A DNA stretch of 64,000 bases from Escherichia phage DK-13, in sequence record MT611523.1, one strand, 5' to 3'. Below are positions 3,214 to 55,738 of this stretch, one piece after another. The notes beneath the pieces are model-generated. The model had not been told where the DNA came from, did not search any database, and worked only from the letters and a program-made list of their open reading frames with translations. Position numbers and translations under genes: made by a program. Position 1 is the stretch's first letter. Each line of letters starts with the position of its first letter.

Positions 3214-4381
3214 GGTCTTCCATCATATCTAAATCGTTTTCGATATCTGCAGCGGACGGTTTTGTCTTACCTTCAGGAGCAGAGTATTTTTCAACCTTGG
3301 AGGCAATAAGCGCATCAACTTCGGCATCAACAACAGCATTGCTATCGATTGCACCCAGTTGGTAATGGCGTTTGATTGCATCACGGAAAGGTTCGTGTTT
3401 AAACAGCGGCCCCCAGAATTCGGTGCAGTTAGTATCTTTTGCGCGCCATGATTTTTCTTCGCGGACCATTTCCCCGGTCTCAACATCAAGATATTCACGG
3501 TTATACCAACCAACTTTTGGTTTAACCACAAATCCGATTTCTATTGCCATATCAAGCAGGCCAGAATACGGGTCAATACCACCATCGAATTTTACATCAA
3601 TGAAGAATTTACTTTTCTCTTTGACCATACGAGATTTTTCGGCGTTCAGAACAAATTGGAAGCCTTCAAGTTCTTTACCAGTTTCTTTAATCTGACGTTT
3701 ACCGATAATGAATACAGTGTCCGCGGAATACATAACACCTGTGCCACCGGTCATAACGGTTTTACTGTACATCTCAATCGTCTCGATTGTATGGTTAACC
3801 GCGACACAAGGAATATCCTTGATACTAAAATAAGGGGTAACAATACGGAACAGAGATTTCAGGGATTTAGCACGAGTCATATCGCCAACGACTTTTTCGT
3901 TCATCGCATCTTCTGTTTCTTTTTTCGACGCCATGTTACCGATTGAGTCAATAAAGATAATGACTTTTTCACCACGCTCAATTGCTTCAAGCTGGTTAAC
4001 CATATCAACTTTCAATTGTTCAACCGACTGGATTGGTGTATGGATAACACGCTCCGGGTCTACTTTCATTGCACGAAGATATGCTTCTGTGATACCAAAT
4101 TCTGAATCATAGAACAAACAGATTGCGTCGGGGTATTTGTTCATATATGCAGAGACCATCGTTAAACCCATATTGGATTTAAAGTGTTTTGACGGACCAG
4201 CAAAAATAGTCAAACCTGACTGCATACCACCATCTAGTGCACCGCTGATTGCAATGTTCAGCATCGGGATTTTTGTACGAACTACATCTTTATCATTAAA
4301 GAACTTGGACTTGGTAAGAGTCGCAGTCATTTTGGATGTAGAAGCTTTAATCAAACGGGATTTCAAATCTGCAATAGACAT
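3203..4381 (-). CDS. uvsX: UvsX RecA-like recombinase
   Basis: 392 aa, RecA/Rad51-fold sequence; T4 UvsX size and position. Confidence 0.93.
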   Translation of the reverse strand: MSIADLKSRLIKASTSKMTATLTKSKFFNDKDVVRTKIPMLNIAISGALDGGMQSGLTIFAGPSKHFKSNMGLTMVSAYMNKYPDAICLFYDSEFGITEAYLRAMKVDPERVIHTPIQSVEQLKVDMVNQLEAIERGEKVIIFIDSIGNMASKKETEDAMNEKVVGDMTRAKSLKSLFRIVTPYFSIKDIPCVAVNHTIETIEMYSKTVMTGGTGVMYSADTVFIIGKRQIKETGKELEGFQFVLNAEKSRMVKEKSKFFIDVKFDGGIDPYSGLLDMAIEIGFVVKPKVGWYNREYLDVETGEMVREEKSWRAKDTNCTEFWGPLFKHEPFRDAIKRHYQLGAIDSNAVVDAEVDALIASKVEKYSAPEGKTKPSAADIENDLDMMEDLDE

Positions 4382-4460
4382 TCATTTTTTCCATAGGCAC
4401 CATTATATTTTTCTCACAGGTTTAAGATAGGATAATTATATCACTGTATTTTCAGAGCAA

Positions 4461-4589
4461 TTAACGATTGAATCCACGATTAATTGCACGTTCAACAATC
4501 TTCCGGGTCTGACGTTTGTCCCACCAGTACATAAAACCAATACCAAATGCAGACAACAGCCATAGGCTAATCAATAACATACCAATCAT
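4461..4589 (-). CDS. Small hydrophobic membrane peptide (42 aa)
   Basis: Hand-translated ORF MIGMLLISLWLLSAFGIGFMYWWDKRQTRKIVERAINRGFNR, below the 60 aa track cut-off, fills the gap between uvsX and the lipoprotein gene. Confidence 0.3.
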   Translation of the reverse strand: MIGMLLISLWLLSAFGIGFMYWWDKRQTRKIVERAINRGFNR

Positions 4590-4610
4590 AATATTCTTCT
4601 CGCAGTTTGT

Positions 4611-5114
4611 TTAGTTAATACCTTGGCGTGCTTTCTCTTTAGCTACACATTTATTAATATAGCTCAGACGGTTTTGAGCAGAACGCTGATACATATCGCG
4701 GTACTCATTAGCTTTTGGAGAACCCGTCTCTGCTGCCTGATAAGCTTCTGCGCGCATGATGTTTATCTGCATATTGATGTATGACATGCAGACCTGTGAA
4801 ATCTGGTTAACAGTATCCAGGTCATTTTGTCGCTTGGTTTCTGCTTCCAGCTTGGCAATGATTTCGTCATGCTTCGCAGCTTGCTCGCGTTTGTACTCAA
4901 TTTCTTGTTGAGCATATTTCGCGCAGTTGTTTCCACATTGATTGTTGTCGCGTTTGTAGATAAGTCCAGTACCACCTTTGAAATCAAAGGAACCATTATG
5001 CACCTGACGGTCTGCAGCAATTCGCGCTTTACCAATCTCGTTGGCATTAACAACATCACCCTGGTAAGCACAACCAGATAGCAGCATAACAGCTGCGATA
5101 GCTAACTTTTTCAT
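4611..5114 (-). CDS. Lipoprotein with coiled-coil region (occupies the T4 beta-gt/42 position)
   Basis: 167 aa; signal peptide MKKLAIAAVMLLSGC with lipobox; sits where T4 carries beta-gt and gene 42. Confidence 0.6.
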   Translation of the reverse strand: MKKLAIAAVMLLSGCAYQGDVVNANEIGKARIAADRQVHNGSFDFKGGTGLIYKRDNNQCGNNCAKYAQQEIEYKREQAAKHDEIIAKLEAETKRQNDLDTVNQISQVCMSYINMQINIMRAEAYQAAETGSPKANEYRDMYQRSAQNRLSYINKCVAKEKARQGIN

Positions 5115-5122
5115 TTTGCTTC

Positions 5123-5266
5123 CTAATTAAAACATTCATAGCGGGCTTGGAGCCCCAAAAATACCCAACCCAAAATTAAAGTTGGAATCATATGTGGAGT
5201 CATTATTGCCCAGTAGATTGACATACTAAAAAATGCAATCAGTACAATAATTGTAATTATCTTCAT
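5123..5266 (-). CDS. Small membrane protein (47 aa, imm.1-like position)
   Basis: Hand-translated MKIITIIVLIAFFSMSIYWAIMTPHMIPTLILGWVFLGLQARYECFN; its ATG overlaps the imm stop as ATGA. Confidence 0.35.
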   Translation of the reverse strand: MKIITIIVLIAFFSMSIYWAIMTPHMIPTLILGWVFLGLQARYECFN

Positions 5267-5505
5267 TTTGATTCCTTGATGATAATTACTTGTGCGTTTG
5301 ATTTACGTTCAGCAACGAGTGCCCAGATAAATGCAATAAACCATCCGACCATTGTCCAACCTAACAGAAGGTTAACAAAGAAGATTCCGCAATTACTTTT
5401 GGTACCACGCAGCAGCGCGATAATCCACGGCAGAAAATATGCCAGTGCAGCCAGGAAGAAAGAACCAGCCCCAAGAACAACAGTACCCGCAATTAATGTT
5501 TCCAT
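5263..5505 (-). CDS. imm: Imm superinfection immunity membrane protein
   Basis: 80 aa, two TM segments, YFLPWIIALLRG...NLLLGWTMVGWFIAFIWAL resembles the superinfection immunity family; directly upstream of gene 43 as in T4. Confidence 0.7.
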   Translation of the reverse strand: METLIAGTVVLGAGSFFLAALAYFLPWIIALLRGTKSNCGIFFVNLLLGWTMVGWFIAFIWALVAERKSNAQVIIIKESK

Positions 5506-5574
5506 TTTAATATCCTTAAGTTATTCATCAGTTGATGAGGTAATCATACGGCAATCCATTGCCGTTGTAAACAC

Positions 5575-8289
5575 TTAAAAGTCAAACATGTCAAAAAGAG
5601 TTGCTTTCTTTTCGTAATCAACCTTTGCAGCTTCAGAGAAACCTGTTAATGGCTTAACAAAAGTCTTCTGGAACAGTGTGTTGTAGTCCATCCACTGCAG
5701 AACCTGGTCACGGATTTCAATCGGGAGTTCAATCCCAGATGGCCATGCAATCACGGTTTCACCAAACGGGTTGCCGACTTTAAGAGGAAGTACATACACC
5801 TTTTCCCCTTCCATGATTTGCGGAACAGTCTTCAGACCTTTAGTTGCACGCATATAAGCAAGCACACCTTTGATATGAGCCGGGCACTTAAATCCAGGGA
5901 AACCACCTTCATTATATTTCTGGATGTTGTTAACCGATGATACACCTGCGATGGTCATGTAGTTAAGCTCATTAAATTCCTTATTGAATTCCTTGAAGTA
6001 TGTCTGCAGAGATTCTTCACCTTCTTGCAGCATGCGGCGGATACATTCTTTCAGAGCTTTCTGACATGCCTTTGGAGTACTCGACTTTTGAGTTTCCAGA
6101 CCCATAATTTTCAGTTTCGGAACAGCATAACGTGTGCCTTCCATATCGTACACGTTCAGCGCATAACGCTTCTTCGCCGTCCAGAATCCACCCACACCTT
6201 TAGAACCCAGCGGAGGACATGCAATCGCCTCACGGTCCATAAACATAAGGTGCTGTTTGTTGTTCATGTATTCAGCCAGCTCACGGAAAGCTTTATCGAT
6301 TGCCGGTTCCAGACGGTCTTTCGCAAACTTGTCCATGAAGTCAACCAGGTGGTTTGTATCACGGAATTTAGATTCGCCACCAACCTTTTTAATCAGGTTA
6401 TCACACTGGATATAAATGGAGTCAGTATCGCCATAGAACACATAAGTTTCGCCGCTTGTCCCACAAACACTATCGAAGTATTCGTTAACTTTACGCTCAA
6501 TCCACTGCAATGCAAGTTGTCCGAAAGATGTAATCGCGGTTGCATTTCGCAGGTCAAAGTAACGGAACCAGATATTGCCCAGAGCGCCATAACAGCTGTT
6601 GATAAGCAGCTTACGGTTAATCTGTGCGGTCATGCCTGCAACTTCTTCCATCTGCGCTTTATACAACATACCATTTAGGACTGTTTGATTCAGACCATGC
6701 AAGGTTGTTTTCATATTGTCATCAAAGTCATGACGATAATCAACTTCAGGTTCGGTTGTACCAGTTCCTGGATTGCGCAGAGCTTCCTTAATCAGTTCAC
6801 CATTACGTTGAGCCGCAAGCATATAGCCTTTGTGCTCTTTACGCTGATTAAACACCTTGGTGACTTCTGTCGGAATAATACCCGCAACATCTTTAAAATA
6901 CATCATACCATTTGGAGCACAACTAAATGTATCAGATGGACGGTCAGCAGTTCCGGCGATGTATTCATGCATTTGCGCAGGAGCAAATGAACCGGCAATC
7001 GTTTCTGGACTGATGTTAATCTGTCGGATAATGCTCGGATACAGAGATGTTAAGTCACAGCTCATTACATATTTGTACGCGTTCGGAATAGGTTCCTTAA
7101 CAAATGCACCAGGGAACGATTGACGAACATGCGATTTGGTTTCCGGAATGACTTTGTTTTGAGTCTTCAGGCTGTTAAAGATAATCGCATCCCAAGTTTT
7201 GATTGGGCTGAATACAGACTGAATCTGCATTTTTGCGTAATAACCCATTGACTGACTCAGGTTAATAAACTGCCGCTTACGGTCAATCTGCACAACACGA
7301 TAAACGTCGATGATGTTATAAGAAATATACCGCTGGTGATTTGATTCGCGCAGTTTAGAAATCGGGCCATCATACGGGAGTTTACCAACACCCAGTTCAG
7401 ATTCCGCAACATAATCCAACGAATAAGACGGTTGGTTTGTGAAGCTGAACTTTTTATACAGGTCCAGATAATCCAGAACAGAGATACCCAGAATCTGAAT
7501 GATTTCTTGTTCTTCACCAAAGCCATTGTTAATGACCTTAACTTTTGTACGACGATGTGGGCTCAGACGTTTTGCCGTAGCTTCACCAAATACATTTTTA
7601 AGGCGGTTGTAGATATATGGAATATCAAATTTCTCGATGTTCCAACCAGTTAACATAACCGGAGTTTTCTCGTTCCAGAATACCAAATACTGCTGGAGCA
7701 TTTCTTCTTCTGAATCGAAAGCCATATAAACAATTTTTTCCAGGATTTCTTCAGGGACTTCATCACCGCCGTCTTCCTGCAGCTTAGCAGCAATATCAAT
7801 AGACCATTGCTCCACAGTGGCGTATGGTGAGCCCAAAAGGTCAAAGACATAGAATTTATCGTCTACCGAATCATAGTGCGTCAGGGCATCAATAGGGTGA
7901 CGTGCTTCAGACGGTTCAGGGAACCCATCAGGAGATGTCACCTCGATATCGAAGTTAGCAACACGGATTTTACTTGAATCATATTTGATTTCGTGTGGGT
8001 AACGGTCGGACAAGTATGCGAGTTTAAAGTCATCCATACCCATAGCTTCGAGACCCATGTCATTCATTCGCTTCATCCACTGGGATGCATCACGCATGGA
8101 ATCGAATTCTTTTTTCACACAACCTTTATTATAGATGTCTGTATACTTTGCAGCCTGGCCTTCCCGGGCGTGCATAAACAAGCATGGGGCATAAGGGATT
8201 TCACGAACACGTTCATGACCATTCTTGTCAATATATCGTTCGAGTAGGTTGTCACCGATTTGTTCGATAGTTAAATAAAATTCTTGCAT
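5575..8289 (-). CDS. 43: gp43 DNA polymerase (family B)
   Basis: 904 aa; family-B polymerase-like sequence; T4 gp43 size and position; uninterrupted ORF. Confidence 0.96.
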   Translation of the reverse strand: MQEFYLTIEQIGDNLLERYIDKNGHERVREIPYAPCLFMHAREGQAAKYTDIYNKGCVKKEFDSMRDASQWMKRMNDMGLEAMGMDDFKLAYLSDRYPHEIKYDSSKIRVANFDIEVTSPDGFPEPSEARHPIDALTHYDSVDDKFYVFDLLGSPYATVEQWSIDIAAKLQEDGGDEVPEEILEKIVYMAFDSEEEMLQQYLVFWNEKTPVMLTGWNIEKFDIPYIYNRLKNVFGEATAKRLSPHRRTKVKVINNGFGEEQEIIQILGISVLDYLDLYKKFSFTNQPSYSLDYVAESELGVGKLPYDGPISKLRESNHQRYISYNIIDVYRVVQIDRKRQFINLSQSMGYYAKMQIQSVFSPIKTWDAIIFNSLKTQNKVIPETKSHVRQSFPGAFVKEPIPNAYKYVMSCDLTSLYPSIIRQINISPETIAGSFAPAQMHEYIAGTADRPSDTFSCAPNGMMYFKDVAGIIPTEVTKVFNQRKEHKGYMLAAQRNGELIKEALRNPGTGTTEPEVDYRHDFDDNMKTTLHGLNQTVLNGMLYKAQMEEVAGMTAQINRKLLINSCYGALGNIWFRYFDLRNATAITSFGQLALQWIERKVNEYFDSVCGTSGETYVFYGDTDSIYIQCDNLIKKVGGESKFRDTNHLVDFMDKFAKDRLEPAIDKAFRELAEYMNNKQHLMFMDREAIACPPLGSKGVGGFWTAKKRYALNVYDMEGTRYAVPKLKIMGLETQKSSTPKACQKALKECIRRMLQEGEESLQTYFKEFNKEFNELNYMTIAGVSSVNNIQKYNEGGFPGFKCPAHIKGVLAYMRATKGLKTVPQIMEGEKVYVLPLKVGNPFGETVIAWPSGIELPIEIRDQVLQWMDYNTLFQKTFVKPLTGFSEAAKVDYEKKATLFDMFDF

Positions 8290-15810: not shown

Positions 15811-15993
15811 AAGCCAAGCGCCGTTATCGCAGTGCAAAATAAAATTATTGAAATGAACCCGTCAGGAGTGGAAAAGAATCCTATCCAACAAGCTCTTGTG
15901 AATGTGTAGAATGCCATGAATAGCACGACATATCCTAAAAATAATTCCATATACTCTCCTCAGTTGGTTCATTTTATCATCCCGAATATAAAG

Positions 15994-16018
15994 CAAAAAA
16001 GGAAGCACTAGGCTTCCT
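15994..16018 (-). terminator. Rho-independent terminator
   Basis: AGGAAGC-ACTAG-GCTTCCT hairpin followed on the minus strand by TTTTTT, at the stop of the small ORF 16008-16181. Confidence 0.5.
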
Positions 16019-16181
16019 TTCCAATTAATACACCATACAGAGGTTCATGAGAAGACCTGAACTTGATAGGCTTATAGGTAATAGTACCTTCATTTTCTGC
16101 TTTAATACGAGCAGCTTCAAATTGAAGAATCATCTCGTTTTTGTCAGATTTAATCTTATCAAAATCCGTCGAATTCGTCAT
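16008..16181 (-). CDS. Small hypothetical protein (57 aa)
   Basis: Hand-translated ORF MTNSTDFDKIKSDKNEMILQFEAARIKAENEG... with AAGAGG RBS, in the region where T4 carries alpha-gt. Confidence 0.35.
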   Translation of the reverse strand: MTNSTDFDKIKSDKNEMILQFEAARIKAENEGTITYKPIKFRSSHEPLYGVLIGKEA

Positions 16182-16239
16182 TCATATGACCTCTTAAAAA
16201 TCTGGATGTTCGTCGTTCATTAGCCACCTGTCCATGTTA

Positions 16240-16440
16240 TCATCGTTGCCACCATTTCTTAAGTTGATGAGAATCGACCCAAACCTTGGCTACAGGCTCA
16301 ATCTGAAAAATACCATCAGAATATTGGCCCATCATTTTGTATTCGGTTTCGGTTTGCTTGATACAGATATTACCGTATGAGCGAAGTCTGAAAGCGGCTC
16401 CAACAAGAAGCCGTTTAAAAGGTTTATTTACTAATGCCAT
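16240..16440 (-). CDS. Hypothetical protein
   Basis: 66 aa ORF in minus-strand array between 47 and 55. Confidence 0.4.
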   Translation of the reverse strand: MALVNKPFKRLLVGAAFRLRSYGNICIKQTETEYKMMGQYSDGIFQIEPVAKVWVDSHQLKKWWQR

Positions 16441-16735
16441 TTACGATTTCCCAAATTTGTTTGCGAGTAGAATCCCACATCAACTTAATCAGGTCTTCCG
16501 TAACTGGTTGGCGGTAAATTCCACGCAGTTTAACAAGAGCATATTTGTATGCTTCAAAATTGTTTTCCAGCACTGCCCCTTGAGCATGCTTATTCAGTCG
16601 TGCAATTTCACGAGCATTCTTTTTCAGAATCTTCGCTGCTTGACTGGTTGCTTCGAGTGCGTTCGCTTCTTCGAGACGTTCCTGTGCTTCTTCAATCTGC
16701 TTATCGGTCAGTTGAGAAATATCTGGAGCTTGCAT
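16424..16735 (-). CDS. Hypothetical protein
   Basis: 103 aa ORF in minus-strand array between 47 and 55. Confidence 0.45.
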   Translation of the reverse strand: MQAPDISQLTDKQIEEAQERLEEANALEATSQAAKILKKNAREIARLNKHAQGAVLENNFEAYKYALVKLRGIYRQPVTEDLIKLMWDSTRKQIWEIVNGISK

Positions 16736-16736
16736 A

Positions 16737-17006
16737 TTAATCCTTGGGAGTTAACTCAATTGTAAAATATAGATTAGCATTATCCACATGATAACGGTAA
16801 TCAACGTTATTGTCCGGAGAAGTAAATTCCAGATTCCGGACGTTTAAAGGGTCGATATCAATTGGAAGACCTTTTATGTCTCGCAGATAAAGTTTAATGA
16901 AATATGGGAGAGCCGTAAAGTCTTCCTCGATTTTATCTAAAAAATCGGTAATATCAAATTGATGTTCCATATAAAAAATCCAAATCACCCTCTTTATCTT
17001 TGGCAC
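16737..17006 (-). CDS. Hypothetical protein
   Basis: 89 aa ORF just downstream of gene 55; start uncertain, overlaps the 3' end of 55. Confidence 0.4.
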
Positions 17007-40981: not shown

Positions 40982-41290
40982 TTAGAAAGAACCAGAGCCT
41001 TTAATTGTGTTCTGGCGACCTTTATTTTCTAATTCAGAATGGTCGATTTCGTATGCTTGTGCTACACCAAAGGCCTTTTTAACTTTAGCTAAAGAACCTT
41101 TAGATGTAACAATATTAAAAGTATTACCTTTGGTAAAATCAACCAAATCAACCAAATCAACTTGTACACCCTGTTTACCGAGGCTTGCGACAATAGCATC
41201 AACATATTGTTGGTCTAAAGTACCTTGGACTCCAATTTGGAATGCTTTAGGGGCTTTGGCTTCTGTGATAAATTCTTGATAAGTTTTCAT
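40982..41290 (-). CDS. Internal protein (capsid-targeted, IP family)
   Basis: N-terminus MKTYQEFITEA matches the T4 internal-protein capsid targeting sequence; start taken at that Met. Confidence 0.6.
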   Translation of the reverse strand: MKTYQEFITEAKAPKAFQIGVQGTLDQQYVDAIVASLGKQGVQVDLVDLVDFTKGNTFNIVTSKGSLAKVKKAFGVAQAYEIDHSELENKGRQNTIKGSGSF

Positions 41291-41755: not shown

Positions 41756-41812
41756 GTTTGTTCTCCGTAGTTGATAGGGTCATTATAACCCTATCGTTTG
41801 GAGATGTACATC
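41756..41812 (-). promoter_or_regulatory. PeSL-like early promoter cassette (family A) with stem-loop
   Basis: Inverted repeat GATAGGGT/ACCCTATC enclosing TATAAT, then leader CAACTACGGAG before the denV ATG. Confidence 0.5.
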
Positions 41813-42080
41813 ATTTCTTAGAGTATTGACCCATAAGTTTAGCGATATCACCCAATTTCTGATTAAACAAATAATCCACTTCTTTGCCAGATTTATCTAC
41901 AATTTGCCACTGGCCATTTCCTTTGTTACCAAAGGTCCAATCACCAACTTTAAATGAAGTTCCATTAACTTTTTTAATAGAAGTAAACTCAAAGCCTTCT
42001 TTCTTAGCTAAAAATGCCATGCGGCTTTCATCTGATTCATTTAATACAGATTCAGCCAAAAATTCTTGATACGTTTTCAT
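41811..42080 (-). CDS. Internal protein (capsid-targeted, ipII/ipIII position)
   Basis: 89 aa; N-terminus MKTYQEFLAES; located between e and denV as ipII/ipIII in T4. Confidence 0.65.
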   Translation of the reverse strand: MKTYQEFLAESVLNESDESRMAFLAKKEGFEFTSIKKVNGTSFKVGDWTFGNKGNGQWQIVDKSGKEVDYLFNQKLGDIAKLMGQYSKK

Positions 42081-42088
42081 ATTTTACC

Positions 42089-49788: not shown

Positions 49789-50214
49789 TTATTTTTGAGC
49801 TTTGCGGAAGTTGGAAGCATAAGACTGAACAACAGTCTTTTTGATATCATGGGTGTTAACCAGAACATCAATCAGGGCGCGGCGAGCTGCACCATCTGCC
49901 ATATCAATTTCTGCAAATGCCTGGAAGCAAATGTCGCGGGCGTTACCAGATTTAGACTGGATTTTTTCTTCTTTAACTTCTTCAATTGGGAATTCAATCA
50001 TTTCAGCTTGGATTAATTCAATGATAGATTCTTTTGACTGTTTGGTGTTTACCTTCAGTTCAGAATTAAGGGACTTGGCGATGGCAACAATCTGGGTTGA
50101 AGTCAGATGAATAAGTGCATCTTCACGAATGCAGATTTCACATACTTCGTCAGCAACCATTTTGTTGGTGATGCGGGTAACAGAGAATGCAGAGGTCAGG
50201 GTCAGAAAGTTCAT
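49789..50214 (-). CDS. Hypothetical protein with conserved C-terminal domain (paralog B)
   Basis: Start at MNFLTLTS; C-terminal DGAARRALIDVLVNTHDIKKTVVQSYASNFRKAQK. Confidence 0.5.
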   Translation of the reverse strand: MNFLTLTSAFSVTRITNKMVADEVCEICIREDALIHLTSTQIVAIAKSLNSELKVNTKQSKESIIELIQAEMIEFPIEEVKEEKIQSKSGNARDICFQAFAEIDMADGAARRALIDVLVNTHDIKKTVVQSYASNFRKAQK

Positions 50215-50295
50215 TTTATTTCTCCAAAGTTTTGTTTGATTCAGTGTGTAACTCAGTATGGAATCATTATGCATCCAGTCAATTCGGATGTACAC
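50215..50295 (-). promoter_or_regulatory. PeSL-like early promoter cassette (family B)
   Basis: Minus strand GTGTAC-N18-CATAATGATTCCATACTGAGTTACAC... Confidence 0.45.
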
Positions 50296-50331
50296 TACTT
50301 TTTGAAGAAAATTTCAAATTTATTCGGGGTA

Positions 50332-50354
50332 TAAAAAAGCCCGCATTGCGGGCT
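50332..50354 (-). terminator. Rho-independent terminator
   Basis: AGCCCGC-ATT-GCGGGCT hairpin followed on the minus strand by TTTTTT. Confidence 0.6.
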
Positions 50355-50355
50355 G

Positions 50356-50910
50356 TTAGTTCTTATAAAAGCGGAACGGATTTATATGAAAGGCGAGCAT
50401 AGCCTTAGGGATTGGTCGGGACAGAAGACTCTTGAGCTTCCAGCCACAATAAACGCGCAGATAAAAGGTGATTCCACCGACCTTGAGATAAGGAACAGAA
50501 GCAAAAACACCCCAGGCATTATCCGTCCACATAAAGAGCCATCCGTGATGAGCTTTATCCGGGGAGCCGGATTCAACATCAGGATTACCTTTATAATGGA
50601 ATTCTGAATTGCAATCACGACCGAGCTTGTGGTAAGCAAAATTGTATGCTTTGTTTCGCCAGAGCCAAGCCACTCGTTGGAAGTAAACACCTAACGGCCA
50701 TTTTCGGATTTTTGACCAACGCTCGATATGACCCCGGTCGCCATCAATCGGATTATCATAAGTCATCATCCAATCAAACCCGAACGGAAGTTTACCAGTC
50801 TTTTTATTATGGAACGGAACTACAAATGGAGCCAGGATAACGGCCAGAATCATGGAGATAAAATCCAGTGGAACTAACAGAATCCAACTCAAATATTTTA
50901 ACAGTTTCAT
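50356..50910 (-). CDS. Membrane-anchored protein (possible late gene)
   Basis: Start at MKLLKYLSW; N-terminal TM helix; Trp-rich; preceded by a TATAAATC late-promoter-like motif. Confidence 0.5.
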   Translation of the reverse strand: MKLLKYLSWILLVPLDFISMILAVILAPFVVPFHNKKTGKLPFGFDWMMTYDNPIDGDRGHIERWSKIRKWPLGVYFQRVAWLWRNKAYNFAYHKLGRDCNSEFHYKGNPDVESGSPDKAHHGWLFMWTDNAWGVFASVPYLKVGGITFYLRVYCGWKLKSLLSRPIPKAMLAFHINPFRFYKN

Positions 50911-50938
50911 ACGTTTCTCTTTAGTTGATTTATAAAAA

Positions 50939-50962
50939 AGCCCCAACCTTTCGGAAGGGGCT
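50939..50962 (-). terminator. Rho-independent terminator
   Basis: GC-rich hairpin GCCCC...GGGGC followed on the minus strand by a T-run, downstream of the gene ending at 51000. Confidence 0.55.
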
Positions 50963-50999
50963 ATACCTTGTCGGGGTTCCACCTGCAAGGCAAGTGTTC

Positions 51000-51383
51000 T
51001 TATCCGCGAGCGAATGCCATTGCAGCGCGTTCGTTGGCACGGTCAGTGATGTTCAAGAATTTATCACGAGCGATTTCGATTGGAGCACCAACCCAGTCAG
51101 CAGCACCATTACCTGGAGACTGTTTAGGGCGAACCATATAAGTTGAAACTTTGGAACCGGCTAGTTTGGCACCTGGTGCCGCGGCATTTTTAACGTCTTT
51201 AGCTTTGATGCCAAACCCAGTTACGATACCCCAAGAAACACCATTAACGGGTTTCTTGAACATAACACGGTCACCAATTGAAACACCGGCTTTTTCTGGA
51301 GCCACTAAAGAAAATTTGCCAGCTTCAGTCAGTACGGATTCGGTGATGGTATTGCGATTTAAAAATTCTGCATATGTAAGCAT
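51000..51383 (-). CDS. Internal-protein-like late protein (degenerate capsid targeting sequence)
   Basis: 127 aa; N-terminus MLTYAEFLN resembles the IP targeting sequence; exact late-promoter consensus 31 nt upstream; Ala/Gly-rich, locally GC-rich. Confidence 0.5.
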   Translation of the reverse strand: MLTYAEFLNRNTITESVLTEAGKFSLVAPEKAGVSIGDRVMFKKPVNGVSWGIVTGFGIKAKDVKNAAAPGAKLAGSKVSTYMVRPKQSPGNGAADWVGAPIEIARDKFLNITDRANERAAMAFARG

Positions 51384-51414
51384 TTTGTTTTTCCATTATT
51401 AGGGTTGTTGTTAA

Positions 51415-51422
51415 TATTTATA
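51415..51422 (-). promoter_or_regulatory. Late promoter (TATAAATA)
   Basis: Exact T4 late-promoter octamer TATAAATA on the minus strand, about 31 nt upstream of the ATG at 51383. Confidence 0.5.
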
Positions 51423-51620
51423 TTCCATAGTACCGGATGCACCATCCGCTCGGATTTCTCATACTACCGGGCGCACCGCCCGCTCTGGAAAAACTCCGTA
51501 AAAGGGTGCGCCGTTTCTGCTGTGATATAAGGGGACATCAACAAATCGTAAAGATTTATTAATGTCAGTCCTTAAACAGGGAACATCAGTCCGACGACTT
51601 ACCGGTAGCGACCCGGTTTC
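51423..51620 (-). ncRNA. Putative structured small RNA region (tandem hairpin repeats)
   Basis: GC-rich non-coding stretch next to the tRNAs; two about 34 nt direct repeats each forming a hairpin (CGGATG-CAC-CATCCG and CGGGCG-CAC-CGCCCG) with compensatory AT to GC changes; no convincing ORF. Confidence 0.3.
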
Positions 51621-51860
51621 TCATTCAATTGTAATAGCTAATTTGACTTTAACAACCTTATAATTGGAATCAAGGTCATTGAATTCCATAAAATTTGTTG
51701 CTAGTCTGCGAGTCGGGAAACTTAGATATTTATTATGTTCAGGTGGAGCAGTTAATGCAAACCATGGGACTTGTTTATCATTTTCGTCAAACTCATCAAA
51801 GCTATAAACCAGCTCGTTGCTGGTTATATCCATAACTGCATATGATTCACTAATAACCAT
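51621..51860 (-). CDS. Hypothetical protein
   Basis: Start at MVISESY to avoid overlap with tRNA-Arg; acidic. Confidence 0.4.
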   Translation of the reverse strand: MVISESYAVMDITSNELVYSFDEFDENDKQVPWFALTAPPEHNKYLSFPTRRLATNFMEFNDLDSNYKVVKVKLAITIE

Positions 51861-51875
51861 AATATCCTCAGTAAT

Positions 51876-51952
51876 TGGTCGGGGTGGTGGGATTCTAACC
51901 CACAACCTACGGTTTAGAAGACCGTTGCTCTATACAATTGAGCTACACCCCG
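51876..51952 (-). tRNA. tRNA-Arg (anticodon TCT)
   Basis: Hand-folded cloverleaf: acceptor CGGGGTG/CACCCCG, D stem GCTC/GAGC, anticodon stem ACGGT/ACCGT with loop CTTCTAA, T stem GTGGG/CCCAC, encoded CCA. Confidence 0.85.
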
Positions 51953-52028
51953 GGTGGCCCCATCCGGACTTGAACCGGAAACCTGCCAGTTATGAGCCGG
52001 ATGCTCTAACCAATTGAGCTACAGGGCC
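51953..52028 (-). tRNA. tRNA-Ile2-like (anticodon CAT; AUA-decoding after lysidine modification, or Met)
   Basis: Hand-folded cloverleaf: acceptor GGCCCTG/TGGGGCC, anticodon loop CTCATAA, T arm TCCGG-TTCAAGT-CCGGA; overall resembles E. coli tRNA-Ile2; abuts tRNA-Arg. Confidence 0.8.
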
Positions 52029-52033
52029 TAAAA

Positions 52034-52309
52034 TTAAATTACAAATCCAGCGGGAGCATTATCATCTTTAACCATATGCTGAATTGTATGATAAGTCATT
52101 TCTTCTGGTGCAACCAGATAAGCCGCCGTATTAACCAACGGGATTAATTTGACTTTATTGAATGTTGAACAACCAATTGACATAAAGGTTTCGCCTGTTG
52201 GATGCTGAATTTCTCCAAATTGACACTCGTACGAGATAGAGCAACGTTTGGTAGTGGTTGTCTTTGTTTTAGGGTCATAAAAAGCTAATTTTAATACTAA
52301 CATAAACAC
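52034..52309 (-). CDS. Hypothetical protein
   Basis: 91 aa ORF immediately upstream of the tRNAs. Confidence 0.4.
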   Translation of the reverse strand: MFMLVLKLAFYDPKTKTTTTKRCSISYECQFGEIQHPTGETFMSIGCSTFNKVKLIPLVNTAAYLVAPEEMTYHTIQHMVKDDNAPAGFVI

Positions 52310-52424
52310 CTCAAGTAAAATTAAGTAAAGTAAGTTTGATTAATAGCACATGCTATTATGAAAGATTCTTTGAGGGAAGAACCTTTGGTAATAGAGGGTA
52401 CTTATTAATAATAACGTGTTTTTG

Positions 52425-52907
52425 TTAAAGCATATCAAGCCCTTTAACAGATGGGATTCGGATTTCTTCTTCGATTATATATAGCTTAACATAAGAAATT
52501 ACACGCATGAAATCGCCATCATATTCGCAAGCCATACCAAGGAGCTCAGTAAGGGCTTCATTCAGGTAGTATGCTTCTTCATCATCATTCAGCAAGGCTT
52601 CCAAATCTGCAATACCAAGAACTTTATCCAAAAATTCATAAGTCAACTGGCCAGATTTTACGCCAGATGCAATGTGGGCGATAACCAAGTGTTTAACCAC
52701 ATCCCATTCTGAATTACCACATTTATTGCGGTTGTTACAATGCGAACCATGGAAAAGTTCCAGGATATATTTGTACTGTTGGATTTCTTGTTCTTCTACG
52801 CCAAATACCGTTTGGGTTTTATAGTTGTCACCATCATTTTCCCAGGTTTCAATTTCAATCACATAACCTTTAGGGATGGTCTGTCCAAATTTGATATTCA
52901 TTCGCAT
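52425..52907 (-). CDS. Hypothetical protein
   Basis: 160 aa ORF. Confidence 0.5.
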   Translation of the reverse strand: MRMNIKFGQTIPKGYVIEIETWENDGDNYKTQTVFGVEEQEIQQYKYILELFHGSHCNNRNKCGNSEWDVVKHLVIAHIASGVKSGQLTYEFLDKVLGIADLEALLNDDEEAYYLNEALTELLGMACEYDGDFMRVISYVKLYIIEEEIRIPSVKGLDML

Positions 52908-53287
52908 GTTCCTGCATCAACAATAGTATGTGTATTGGCATTGACAATCTGCCACCAGTCAAAACGGTTGGAACCATAACAAGGCTTCTTCTCGTTTTCT
53001 TTAATTATATCACGCAGTTCATCTTCAGTTGCAGCCTTCGCGATAAGGTCATCATAACCGCCACGAGGATAATAGCTATCACCAGCAAAGAGCAAAAAGT
53101 TTGTTTTGATATTCTTGAATTCTTCAAGAGTAATAACTGTTCCACCAGGTTGAACAATATCTACATAACTATATCCTAATTTCTGTGCTTCATTTACCGC
53201 TTCGAGCAGGGTGTCGTGTGCCCACCCAATTTGGCAATCTGGTTTTTCAGATGGATTTGCCTGATAATCCGCATACACTTTATACAT
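52898..53287 (-). CDS. Hypothetical protein
   Basis: Start at MYKVYADY to avoid overlap with the upstream ORF. Confidence 0.45.
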   Translation of the reverse strand: MYKVYADYQANPSEKPDCQIGWAHDTLLEAVNEAQKLGYSYVDIVQPGGTVITLEEFKNIKTNFLLFAGDSYYPRGGYDDLIAKAATEDELRDIIKENEKKPCYGSNRFDWWQIVNANTHTIVDAGTCE

Positions 53288-53288
53288 T

Positions 53289-53546
53289 TTACTCACCTTT
53301 AGAGATTTTATCCATAACGAAAGAGATTGAACCAATTAAAAATGCAACTACTAAAGAGATTATATTCTCAGAAGTTGAAAGCATATTCAACATAAAGCCA
53401 GCAAACATGCTAAAACCAAAAGCGGTAACAGCAACAAGGGCAGTAACATTTCTAATTAATTCGCAACGTTTCATTTTATTCTCCTCACTTTTTGATAGGT
53501 CTAGGTTATGATATACTAGACCAGTAACTGTTTTATTCAGCACCAA
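53289..53546 (-). CDS. Small membrane protein
   Basis: 85 aa, two hydrophobic helices. Confidence 0.45.
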   Translation of the reverse strand: MVLNKTVTGLVYHNLDLSKSEENKMKRCELIRNVTALVAVTAFGFSMFAGFMLNMLSTSENIISLVVAFLIGSISFVMDKISKGE

Positions 53547-53754
53547 CGGCTTTCAAAAGTTTTTTAAGGTTGACAATACCACGGGCAGAGAAAGTAACCT
53601 TACCACCTGTTTCAGATACAGAACCTGTAAGTTTTGCCAATTTATCATTTGGTAACTTTTTAAAATCCTTCAGTGTACCATCAAAAGTTTTAGATTGAAT
53701 CGGCAATTCGTCATGCATTTTAGCTTCGTTAATAAATTCTTGATACGTTTTCAT
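53533..53754 (-). CDS. Internal protein (capsid-targeted), array member 5
   Basis: 73 aa; N-terminus MKTYQEFINEA; own family-A promoter cassette upstream. Confidence 0.6.
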   Translation of the reverse strand: MKTYQEFINEAKMHDELPIQSKTFDGTLKDFKKLPNDKLAKLTGSVSETGGKVTFSARGIVNLKKLLKAVGAE

Positions 53755-53811
53755 TTTTTGACCCTCAGTAGTTGATGGGATAATTATACGCTATCCCATT
53801 TAAAAGTACAC
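53755..53811 (-). promoter_or_regulatory. PeSL-like early promoter cassette (family A) with stem-loop
   Basis: Minus strand GTGTAC-N17-TATAAT inside inverted repeat GGGATA/TATCCC, then leader ATCAACTACTGAGGG. Confidence 0.5.
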
Positions 53812-54066
53812 TTATTTTTTAGGGATACGATAGTAACGCATCTCAACATCTTTCTGCTTGTACCACTTTTTGATAAGGTCTTCAGAACCGCTAATAGTAA
53901 CGATGTCATAACGACCATCATGCGATACTTCAGCACTTAACTGCATGAAATTGTCCAGTGAACGACGGAATTCCTCATTGGAAAAACTGCCACGCGGCGA
54001 ACCAACATAAGCAAACTCAACTTTTGCATTTGCAGATTCAGTAATAAATTCTTGATAAGTTTTCAT
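53812..54066 (-). CDS. Internal protein (capsid-targeted), array member 4
   Basis: Start at MKTYQEFITES; own family-A promoter cassette upstream. Confidence 0.6.
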   Translation of the reverse strand: MKTYQEFITESANAKVEFAYVGSPRGSFSNEEFRRSLDNFMQLSAEVSHDGRYDIVTISGSEDLIKKWYKQKDVEMRYYRIPKK

Positions 54067-54122
54067 GTAGTCTCCAGTAGTTGATGAGATAATCATACTA
54101 CAGTTATCCCATCGCGTATACT
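54067..54122 (-). promoter_or_regulatory. PeSL-like early promoter cassette (family A)
   Basis: Minus strand ...GGGATAACTGTAGTATGATTATCTCATCAACTACTGGAG then ATG. Confidence 0.45.
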
Positions 54123-54365
54123 TTATTTTAAGTCTTCCAGACGTTTTTTCATCTTGGTGCCGTTCTTAGCAATTTCACCCGCGTCTGAACAAAGAGCAAG
54201 GAGAGCTTTAACTTTACCCTGGTCGCCTTTAAAAGATGATGCATCTACAGAATCGGCAAGTTCTTTGATACGTGCAAACAGGCGCTCTGCTTCAGCAAGG
54301 GCTTGACCAAGTTTAACTTCCATGCCATGGGAAGATTCTGTTATAAATGTTTGATAAGTTTTCAT
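54123..54365 (-). CDS. Internal protein (capsid-targeted), array member 3
   Basis: 80 aa; N-terminus MKTYQTFITES. Confidence 0.6.
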   Translation of the reverse strand: MKTYQTFITESSHGMEVKLGQALAEAERLFARIKELADSVDASSFKGDQGKVKALLALCSDAGEIAKNGTKMKKRLEDLK

Positions 54366-54373
54366 TTGAAGCC

Positions 54374-54646
54374 TTATTTAAGATAAATTGCATATTTTTT
54401 ATAACCAGCTGTCTCATGACGGAGACCCTTGTCATTGGCAAAACGCTCAATGTTATTAATTTGGTTCTGGTCAAGTTCTGAAATGTCAAACGCGAAAAAG
54501 TTGCGTTTGTTACCAATTGTTATATGGTCAGTCAAGTCAATGCTATACAGGTGATTGATATTGTCAATCATAGATTTGACTGCTTTACTAATTTTTACTT
54601 CTTCATTCAGTTGTGACTCGTTGAAAAATTCATTGAAAGTTTTCAT
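54374..54646 (-). CDS. Internal protein (capsid-targeted), array member 2
   Basis: 90 aa; N-terminus MKTFNEFFNES. Confidence 0.55.
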   Translation of the reverse strand: MKTFNEFFNESQLNEEVKISKAVKSMIDNINHLYSIDLTDHITIGNKRNFFAFDISELDQNQINNIERFANDKGLRHETAGYKKYAIYLK

Positions 54647-54654
54647 AAGAAACC

Positions 54655-54987
54655 TTATTTATAAAGTTTTGCCAGTTCTTTACGTCCACGAGCAGACATA
54701 ATAAATTGTTCATCGCCAATTTTAAAATATGCCATACCACCGTCAACAGCGATACCAATTTCTTTAGTACCTTCTTTGCCTTTCCACTTGCCACCAGATT
54801 TCAGGACAGCTTCAACTGCAGCTTTGGAATATTTGGACGTTTGAAAACGTTCATTACCAATCTGAAAGAAAACACCATCTGCATTTTTGGTTAAACCAAA
54901 TTTCAGAGAGCCTTCACTATCATCAATTGATTTAGTCTCATTGATGGCGGATTCAGCTAAAAACTCGTTGTAAGTCTTGATGTTCAT
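54655..54987 (-). CDS. Internal protein (capsid-targeted), array member 1 (ipI position)
   Basis: 110 aa; N-terminus MNIKTYNEFLAES; immediately downstream of acb1/57B, where T4 carries ipI. Confidence 0.55.
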   Translation of the reverse strand: MNIKTYNEFLAESAINETKSIDDSEGSLKFGLTKNADGVFFQIGNERFQTSKYSKAAVEAVLKSGGKWKGKEGTKEIGIAVDGGMAYFKIGDEQFIMSARGRKELAKLYK

Positions 54988-54999
54988 TTTAACTCCGTT

Positions 55000-55027
55000 T
55001 GTTCGTTAGTGTAGGTGCATAATACTG
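55000..55027 (-). promoter_or_regulatory. Perfect 11-bp-stem hairpin between acb1 and the IP array
   Basis: GTGTAGGTGCA-GTATTAT-GCACCTACAC on the minus strand; no U-run after it, so probably an RNA processing or stability element rather than a terminator. Confidence 0.4.
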
Positions 55028-55047
55028 CACCTACACTCATTTGTATA

Positions 55048-55738
<691 letters not shown>

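Follow-up and report, generated by a model that had tools for sequence, protein, structure and literature searches.

A tandem array of five candidate internal-protein cassettes at the ipI-side locus of Escherichia phage DK-13

Using sequence comparison, family profiles and predicted structures, we describe here a hypervariable (hyperplastic) internal-protein (IP) locus, the ipI-side locus of T-even phages, in a 64,000-nucleotide (nt) stretch of Escherichia phage DK-13 (sequence record MT611523.1), which is referred to throughout as the window. By its sequence the phage is a Gaprivervirus of the T-even type. Between its acb1 gene (57B) and a homologue of T4 trna.4 lie five consecutive small genes, A to E, whose products each begin with a leader of the kind that serves as the capsid targeting sequence (CTS) of T4 internal proteins. 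In the list of the array and its two anchors, lengths are in amino acids (aa) and the PHROG matches were obtained with the body of each protein alone.

55048-55503, minus strand: 57B/acb1, the left anchor of the locus (Pfam Acb1, 1.5e-59; T4 synteny)
53533-54987, minus strand: the IP array A-E, five consecutive genes in the order 54987 to 53533
54655-54987, minus strand: IP gene A, 110 aa, leader MNIKTYNEFLAE; PHROG 3966 'unknown function', 3e-26
54374-54646, minus strand: IP gene B (Ip9), 90 aa, leader MKTFNEFFNE; PHROG 7673 'internal head protein', 1.8e-50
54123-54365, minus strand: IP gene C (Ip5), 80 aa, leader MKTYQTFITE; PHROG 3499 'internal head protein', 1.5e-37
53812-54066, minus strand: IP gene D (Ip6-like), 84 aa, leader MKTYQEFITE; PHROG 8111 'internal virion protein', 4.3e-6
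53533-53754, minus strand: IP gene E, 73 aa, leader MKTYQEFINE; PHROG 8765 'internal virion protein', 6e-14
53289-53474, minus strand: trna.4 homologue (61 aa membrane protein), the right anchor; 67% identity to T4 Trna.4 and so annotated in phage VR26

An initial annotation of the window had proposed five consecutive genes with T4-type leaders at this place, and all five are found there on the minus strand with the N-termini it had read. The gene order of T4 is trna.4 - ipI - 57B - 57A - 1 - 3, with ipI as the sole gene between 57B and trna.4, which bears out the remark in the same annotation that T4 has a single ipI here. Because the trna.4 homologue and acb1 bracket the array, the five genes of the window fill exactly the ipI slot of T4.

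The leader of each of the five proteins differs little from MKTYQEFIAE. Scanning all six frames of the window for a loose form of the leader motif returned exactly eight open reading frames (ORFs) and no others, namely A to E and three further genes, F, G and H, that are described below, and the window has six copies of the strict motif MKT[YF]..F against a mean of 0.03 in 200 shuffles, so that the leader observation is far beyond chance. Mean identity among A to E is 72% over the first 30 nt and 29%, the random level, over the next 120 nt. Leader position 4 is Tyr or Phe, position 7 is Phe and position 10 is Glu in all five; position 8 is Ile or Leu in four of the five and Phe in B, giving at positions 8 to 10 the L/I-x-E motif as LAE in A, ITE in C and D and INE in E, with FNE in B. 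In T4 IPIII the first ten residues are necessary and sufficient for loading into the prohead core, mutagenesis assigns residues 4 and 7 to targeting and residues 8 and 10 to processing, and the protease gp21 cuts after L/I-x-E (PMC9026906). The leaders of T4 IPII and IPIII, both of them proven virion proteins (PMC9026906), align with those of A to E as leaders of the same type. Synonymous codons for the conserved leader residues differ between cassettes (ACT/ACG, TAT/TAC, GAA/GAG, ATT/ATA/ATC), which argues that selection acts on the peptide and not on the DNA alone. The initial annotation had allowed that the N-terminal similarity might reflect nothing beyond a shared translation-initiation region; these synonymous codons, together with the retention of the targeting residues, are evidence to the contrary.

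Behind the leaders, the five bodies are unrelated to one another, as had been supposed: once the leaders are removed, the best BLASTP pair among A to E is no better than E 0.16, the bodies fall into five different PHROG families, and in an hhalign comparison of the family profiles of E and A just the 11-residue leader aligns. Four of the five leaderless bodies (B, C, D and E) match PHROGs annotated as internal head or internal virion proteins. The orthologue of B in VR26 is ip9, which has Leu at leader position 7, and that of C is ip5, similar to RB51 Ip5; D aligns with VR26 Ip6 at 41% identity (E 2e-15), the shared leader being part of the alignment; and E has 14 homologue clusters at 68-100% identity, one of which is named 'putative internal head protein' in phage RZ. 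The remaining gene, A, is annotated as a hypothetical protein in relatives, and its VR26 orthologue is called from an upstream start (121 aa) that hides the CTS leader. Neither Pfam, where no match to proteins A to E reached the cut-off, nor a sequence search of the PDB, where nothing significant was found for A to E and none fell below E 0.02, added to these assignments.

All five ORFs are intact and have ribosome-binding sites. Four of the bodies are basic, with isoelectric points (pI) of 8.8-9.8, and that of B has a pI of 6.8. The ratio of nonsynonymous to synonymous substitution rates (dN/dS) is 0.02 for A and 0.03 for B (dS about 0.2), 0 for C (dN 0, dS 0.28) and 0.1-0.3 for D and E, and B is 80-84% identical across eleven loci. 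Judged from these comparisons, the bodies are under strong purifying selection wherever divergence permits an estimate.

The locus as a whole varies between phages. It is 98% identical to that of Yersinia phage vB_YenM_P8 (P8) and Escherichia phage vB_EcoM_RZ (RZ, species Gaprivervirus arezed) and 95-97% identical to those of the VR20, VR25 and VR26 group. Matches to the locus occur in roughly 600 T4-like genomes. At least 80% of the 3.6-kb locus query is covered by 17 GenBank records, and 100% by P8, RZ and MN01. The identical five-gene array is present in at least three phages (four GenBank records), and each of the bodies recurs in other T4-like phages; the initial annotation's description of them as novel does not hold. 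The P8 record, which we relied on for gene positions and whose function names are unreliable, labels three of the five genes internal head protein, one internal virion protein and one hypothetical protein, and the corresponding slot of VR26 contains ip6, ip5, ip9 and one hypothetical protein. In 28 acb1 loci from IMG/VR, 0-4 CTS genes directly follow acb1; the 62 CTS ORFs of these loci fall into 16 body clusters, and each of A to E shares a cluster with 1-12 other members, D being in the largest (13 members). Five cassettes are the top of the range sampled in these 28 loci and are not unique. Diversity at the locus comes from cassette swapping and not from rapid change within cassettes.

The sequences between the genes are of two kinds, promoter-like sites with hairpins, whose stems are given in base pairs (bp), and short junctions:

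55008-55047, minus strand: promoter-like site and hairpin upstream of A, TATACA-N17-TATTAT; a 12-bp stem at 55008-55037 straddles the -10 hexamer
54647-54654, minus strand: A/B junction within AAATAAGGtttcttATG (stop codon and ribosome-binding site)
54656-54663, minus strand: exact T4 late-promoter box TATAAATA at the A/B junction, in the last codons and stop codon of A
54083-54121, minus strand: promoter-like site and hairpin upstream of D, GTATAC-N18-TATGAT; an imperfect stem (9 of 10 bp) at about 54083-54112 lies around the -10 hexamer
53775-53811, minus strand: promoter-like site and hairpin upstream of E, GTGTAC-N17-TATAAT; an 8-bp stem at 53775-53799 has TATAAT in its loop
53498-53522: hairpin after E

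A, D, E, G and T4 ipI have an upstream block in common, made up of a -35-like GTRTAC or TATACA, a spacer of 16-18 nt and a -10-like TAtnAT, with an inverted repeat that embraces the -10 element and a ribosome-binding site after it. These sites are consensus matches and thus putative promoters. B, C and F directly adjoin the gene before them, with a conserved AAATAAGGnnnnnnATG junction in between, and the 8-nt A/B type of junction is seen again at 54366-54373 (B/C) and 42081-42088 (gene e/F). Such anatomy agrees with what Comeau et al. (2014) ascribed to the IP locus, repeated blocks of transcription and translation signals, and with their idea of cassette shuffling mediated by promoters and stem-loops (PMC4122927). 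An alternative 94-aa ORF call for D begins 10 codons further upstream (54067-54096), at an ATG that is part of the predicted -10 hexamer TATGAT; the ATG at 54066 is the one served by the GGAG ribosome-binding site of D, and the longer call is probably an artefact. The late-promoter box at the A/B junction, the only such box in the array, lies just 9 nt before the ATG of B and is probably fortuitous. Late promoters inside the array were considered and rejected, the sole box being too near the B start codon and the number of TATAAATA boxes in the window (five seen, 5.2 expected) equalling the chance expectation.

Predicted structures were obtained for two of the bodies. The AF2 model of E (pLDDT 79) is a small beta-alpha-beta-beta-alpha body. 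The body of A is a tandem duplication, with an internal sequence repeat at E 4e-5, and its AF2 model, of moderate confidence and the best of five at pLDDT 77 (the other four 53-67) from a 12-sequence alignment, consists of two beta-beta-beta-beta-alpha repeats, as one Whirly/PUR-like domain requires. Foldseek matches of the model to Whirly/PUR structures are at E 4e-3 or weaker with 8-13% sequence identity, and the fold of A is predicted from them to be Whirly/PUR-like.

The other three leader-bearing genes lie outside the array and are listed here with a late-promoter box and a neighbouring gene of H:

41811-42080, minus strand: IP gene F, 89 aa, leader MKTYQEFLAE, between gene e and denV; PHROG 8765, 1.8e-32
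40982-41290, minus strand: IP gene G, 102 aa, leader MKTYQEFITE, downstream of denV; PHROG 2667 'internal head protein', 1.7e-32
51415-51422, minus strand: T4 late-promoter box TATAAATA, 31 nt upstream of H, assigned by position with the box count at chance level
51000-51383, minus strand: IP-like orphan H, 127 aa, with a long leader, MLTYAEFLNRNTITE followed by S; comparative evidence
50356-50910: DUF7338 membrane protein (Pfam, 2.9e-63)

All three had been noted in the initial annotation and are present, although the late promoter that it gave to H is placed by position only. F and G flank denV near gene e, which is the ipII/ipIII locus of T4, and GTGTAC-N17-TATAAT stands upstream of G. At the level of annotation, the P8 record has no coding sequence in the place that F takes in the window, from lysozyme to endonuclease V; the second IP locus therefore appears to be variable between very close relatives too. 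The claim that the bodies are unrelated holds among A to E and fails for all eight proteins taken together, since E and F share PHROG 8765. Two wider groupings were tried and rejected. A remote homology of E or F to T4 IPI*, suggested by a by-eye likeness of GTSFKVGDWTF in F to GTVYLGDGWSA in IPI, was set aside on a BLASTP value of E 0.11 with the leader included, the isolation of IPI in PHROG 4363 and the lack of a Foldseek match. A superfamily of A, E and F was likewise discarded (F against PHROG 3966 weak at 1.3e-3, A against F at BLASTP E 1.7, E and A aligned by hhalign in the leader alone), leaving E and F linked through their shared PHROG.

H has no PHROG or Pfam match. Its leader, MLTYAEFLNRNTITE followed by S, resembles the 19-residue leader of T4 IPI, MKTFKEFTSTTTPVSTITE followed by A. 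H is present in 15 phage records, in every one with an amino acid identity of 99% or more, and forms a single cluster among 5.8 billion proteins; an exhaustive HMMER search of 1.8 billion representative proteins returned two distant relatives and one fragment of H itself. The two relatives are 42-47% identical over the body and have CTS-like N-termini, MYTFKEFLVESELDLITE (MYTFKEFLVE...) and MKSFKEFMLSE. Comparative evidence thus supports H as another internal protein, as the initial annotation suspected, and it is the least-known piece of the IP set of the window.

The surroundings of H have a character of their own. G+C is raised at 50350-51400 (0.44-0.50 against about 0.37, with surroundings at 0.35-0.40), an interval that holds H and the DUF7338 gene and looks like an acquired two-gene insert adjoining the tRNA/stable-RNA region. 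Next to it, at 51505-51624 on the minus strand, is an 88%-identical homologue of T4 rnaD (the stable 'species 2' RNA), followed at 51423-51504 by about 80 nt of G+C-rich non-coding hairpins; together these 203 nt have a fold z of -3.2. P8 annotates an ORF on the opposite strand of this stretch, which is probably spurious, and Rfam found two tRNAs only in 50000-53500, with no family for the rnaD/hairpin stretch. The tRNA genes, at 51876-52028 on the minus strand, are only two, Arg-tct and Met-cat, where T4 has eight.

Taken together, we regard it as highly probable that this is an ipI-side IP locus with five cassettes whose products are packaged, cleaved by gp21 and injected as anti-defence proteins, a reading built on features that are seen directly: the genes with their leaders, where they lie, the families to which they belong, purifying selection on the bodies and a locus that varies between phages. 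By analogy with T4, packaging, cleavage and injection of A to E are very likely; that the bodies act against host defences is our best guess from the same source. The initial annotation had likewise proposed a capsid-targeted tandem array whose bodies are candidate co-injected anti-defence effectors, and this agrees with the standard view in the literature (PMC3012670, PMC9026906, PMC12373910).

We propose that the CTS of about ten residues would bind the gp22 scaffold core, by which the protein would be built into the prohead, and that the prohead protease gp21 would then cut after the Glu of L/I-x-E at the end of the leader. The small and mostly basic body would stay with the packaged DNA and be ejected into the cell before any phage gene expression, where it would neutralise a host factor and so keep the entering DNA from destruction; each body would have a specific target of its own. 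Going by Ip1 to Ip3, the likeliest target would be a modification-dependent nuclease (type IV, GmrSD-like) or another early-acting nuclease. T4 Ip1 (IPI*) is reportedly an injected inhibitor of a GmrSD type IV restriction enzyme, a finding said to come from Bair et al. in 2007. The locus varies as cassettes are exchanged, and short homologies for recombination between cassettes and between phages would be offered by the conserved 30 nt that encode the leader, by the promoter/hairpin blocks and by the AAATAAGG junctions. A T4 head contains about 1000 IP molecules in total (~300 each) in its DNA, with which they are ejected (PMC9026906, PMC3012670), and the lysines of these proteins contact DNA phosphates (PMC3012670); the basic bodies of four of our five proteins are like the T4 IPs. 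IPI* blocks the GmrSD enzyme of strain CT596, and work of 2025 showed that Ip2 and Ip3 inhibit GmrSD variants that differ from one another, without cross-protection (PMC12373910); the initial annotation's statement that T4 has one characterised internal protein is therefore outdated.

Several points weigh against this reading. The bodies show no homology to T4 IPI, IPII or IPIII, with which the leaders alone align (the three T4 proteins are themselves in separate PHROGs, 4363, 7857 and 5341), and a Foldseek search of the PDB with the E model gave nothing below E 0.3, IPI* included. Two leaders depart from the pattern, that of B in its cleavage site, F-N-E instead of L/I-x-E, and that of A in being shifted by two residues (MNI-KTYNEF); the A homologues of PEi20, STP4-a and others begin MKTY. 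The genes for the gp22 scaffold and the gp21 protease lie outside the window, genes 21 and 22 being core genes of T4-related phages (PMC9026906), and expression of the array at the time of head assembly is assumed from T4. In the literature we found no virion proteomics or N-terminal sequencing for A to E or for VR7-/P8-type phages. Finally, tblastn with T4 gp42, beta-gt and alpha-gt found no homologue in the 64 kb of the window, where the flanking imm, 47 and 55 were found.

This last result bears on the class of targets. In the uvsX-43 interval (4381-5575), where T4 has gene 42 (dCMP hydroxymethylase) and beta-glucosyltransferase, the window has a lipoprotein-like ORF and imm, and the 47-55 interval (15837-16954) is without alpha-glucosyltransferase. 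A survey lists Gaprivervirus as without known modified-base enzymes, with alc, denB, denA and dCTPase kept (PMC8056088). The known IP targets attack DNA with glucosylated hydroxymethylcytosine (hmC); given that hmC and glucosylation genes are missing from the window and, according to the survey, from the lineage, a GmrSD specific for glucosyl-hmC may not be the relevant threat. There is an outside chance, which we hold tentatively, that the eight IP-type proteins are injected effectors against other first-line defences and that A and H are new in kind. On its model, A, as an injected Whirly/PUR-like protein, may bind single-stranded nucleic acid; if so, it could shield the entering DNA or blind a system that senses single-stranded DNA or DNA ends, and H would represent an orphan IP family under a late promoter, with a long leader like that of IPI.

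That the proteins are packaged, but mainly to condense DNA and neutralise its charge or to aid head assembly, as histone-like cargo and not as specific effectors, seems to us rather improbable. The four basic bodies, the lysine-phosphate contacts and roughly 1000 DNA-embedded IP molecules of T4 (PMC3012670), the head-assembly aberrations of IPIII and triple-IP mutants (PMC9026906) and the predicted Whirly/PUR-like fold of A, which usually binds nucleic acid, speak for this explanation. Generic charge, however, fails to explain five unrelated folds under strong purifying selection or their cassette-like presence and absence between near-identical phages; B, at pI 6.8, is not basic; and specific GmrSD targets are now known for all three T4 IPs (PMC12373910). 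It is more doubtful still, and in our estimate very unlikely, that some members of the array, B and A being the candidates, have lost their function as decaying or redundant cassettes. The F-N-E of B, with its Leu at position 7 in VR26, and the MNI-KTY start of A could be taken as signs of decay, but all five genes are intact with ribosome-binding sites, A and B have dN/dS values of 0.02-0.03 against relatives at a dS of about 0.2, and B keeps its 80-84% identity across the eleven loci. Hardly tenable is the notion that the shared N-terminus is a translation-initiation or recombination module of ordinary early proteins that stay in the cytoplasm and never enter the head, for although conservation extends upstream to take in the ribosome-binding site and promoter, early-type promoter matches precede three of the five genes and the one late box in the array is unconvincingly near the B start codon, conservation is at the amino-acid level with synonymous codon changes, the conserved positions are the T4 targeting and processing residues known from mutagenesis (PMC9026906), the proven virion proteins IPII and IPIII of T4 bear the same leader, and the distant relatives of the H body carry CTS-like leaders of different sequence.

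An IP locus with five packaged, injected anti-defence cassettes, the reading we prefer, belongs to a known system. According to the papers that cite Repoila, Tetart, Bouet and Krisch (EMBO J 1994), which describes the polymorphic IP loci of T-even phages (via PMC3012670, PMC9026906, PMC12373910 and PMC4122927), the locus, the leader, the variability and the presumed purpose have been known since 1994, and GenBank and PHROGs already contain the genes themselves. IP loci amount to a natural library: their proteins are delivered before any phage gene is expressed, each probably inhibits a host defence directed at incoming DNA, and targets are known for only three IPs, all of T4. A to E together with F, G and H are reasonable candidates for screens like those made for Ip1-3; they add candidates and no concept. 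What remains of value is a set of eight injected-protein candidates in a lineage whose DNA chemistry is probably unlike that of T4.

Compared with proteins of the Whirly/PUR-repeat fold (MRP1/MRP2, PBF-2 p24, Pur-alpha), A has no sequence similarity, and SsgA-like proteins have a Whirly/PUR-type fold without nucleic acid binding. The promoter-early stem-loop (PeSL) modules are reportedly due to Arbiol in 2010. They belong to the hyperplastic regions of T4-like phages and have been proposed to mediate cassette exchange (PMC4122927). Like them, the array has putative early-type promoters with a stem-loop and ribosome-binding site between small variable genes, and the -35 and -10 elements are a reasonably good match to the PST/T4 consensus TTTACW-N17-TAYWAT (PMC4122927). 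In contrast to PeSL, whose stem is upstream of the promoter, the stem here straddles the -10 hexamer, and such a module precedes three of the five genes (A, D and E), B and C being joined by the 8-nt junction. With T4 Ip1 (IPI*), Ip2 and Ip3 (Silas et al. 2025, PMC12373910) the proteins share a small size, the carriage of several non-homologous IPs per phage and, by inference in the case of the window, the device of CTS, prohead core and injection; they differ in that there is no body homology, the E model is unlike IPI*, and hmC and glucosylation genes are not in the window. The closest match is with the T-even IP loci at large, for which the citing papers credit Repoila 1994 with a series of Ip1-Ip3 of T4 and at least ten IPs in relatives. 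Our locus has the same slot between 57B and the tRNA-side genes, the same leader of ~10-11 residues before unrelated bodies, the same reiterated blocks of promoter and translation signals between cassettes and the same series names, ip5 and ip9 in VR26, with a third gene that is Ip6-like. It differs from them in nothing of kind, its five cassettes standing at the high end.

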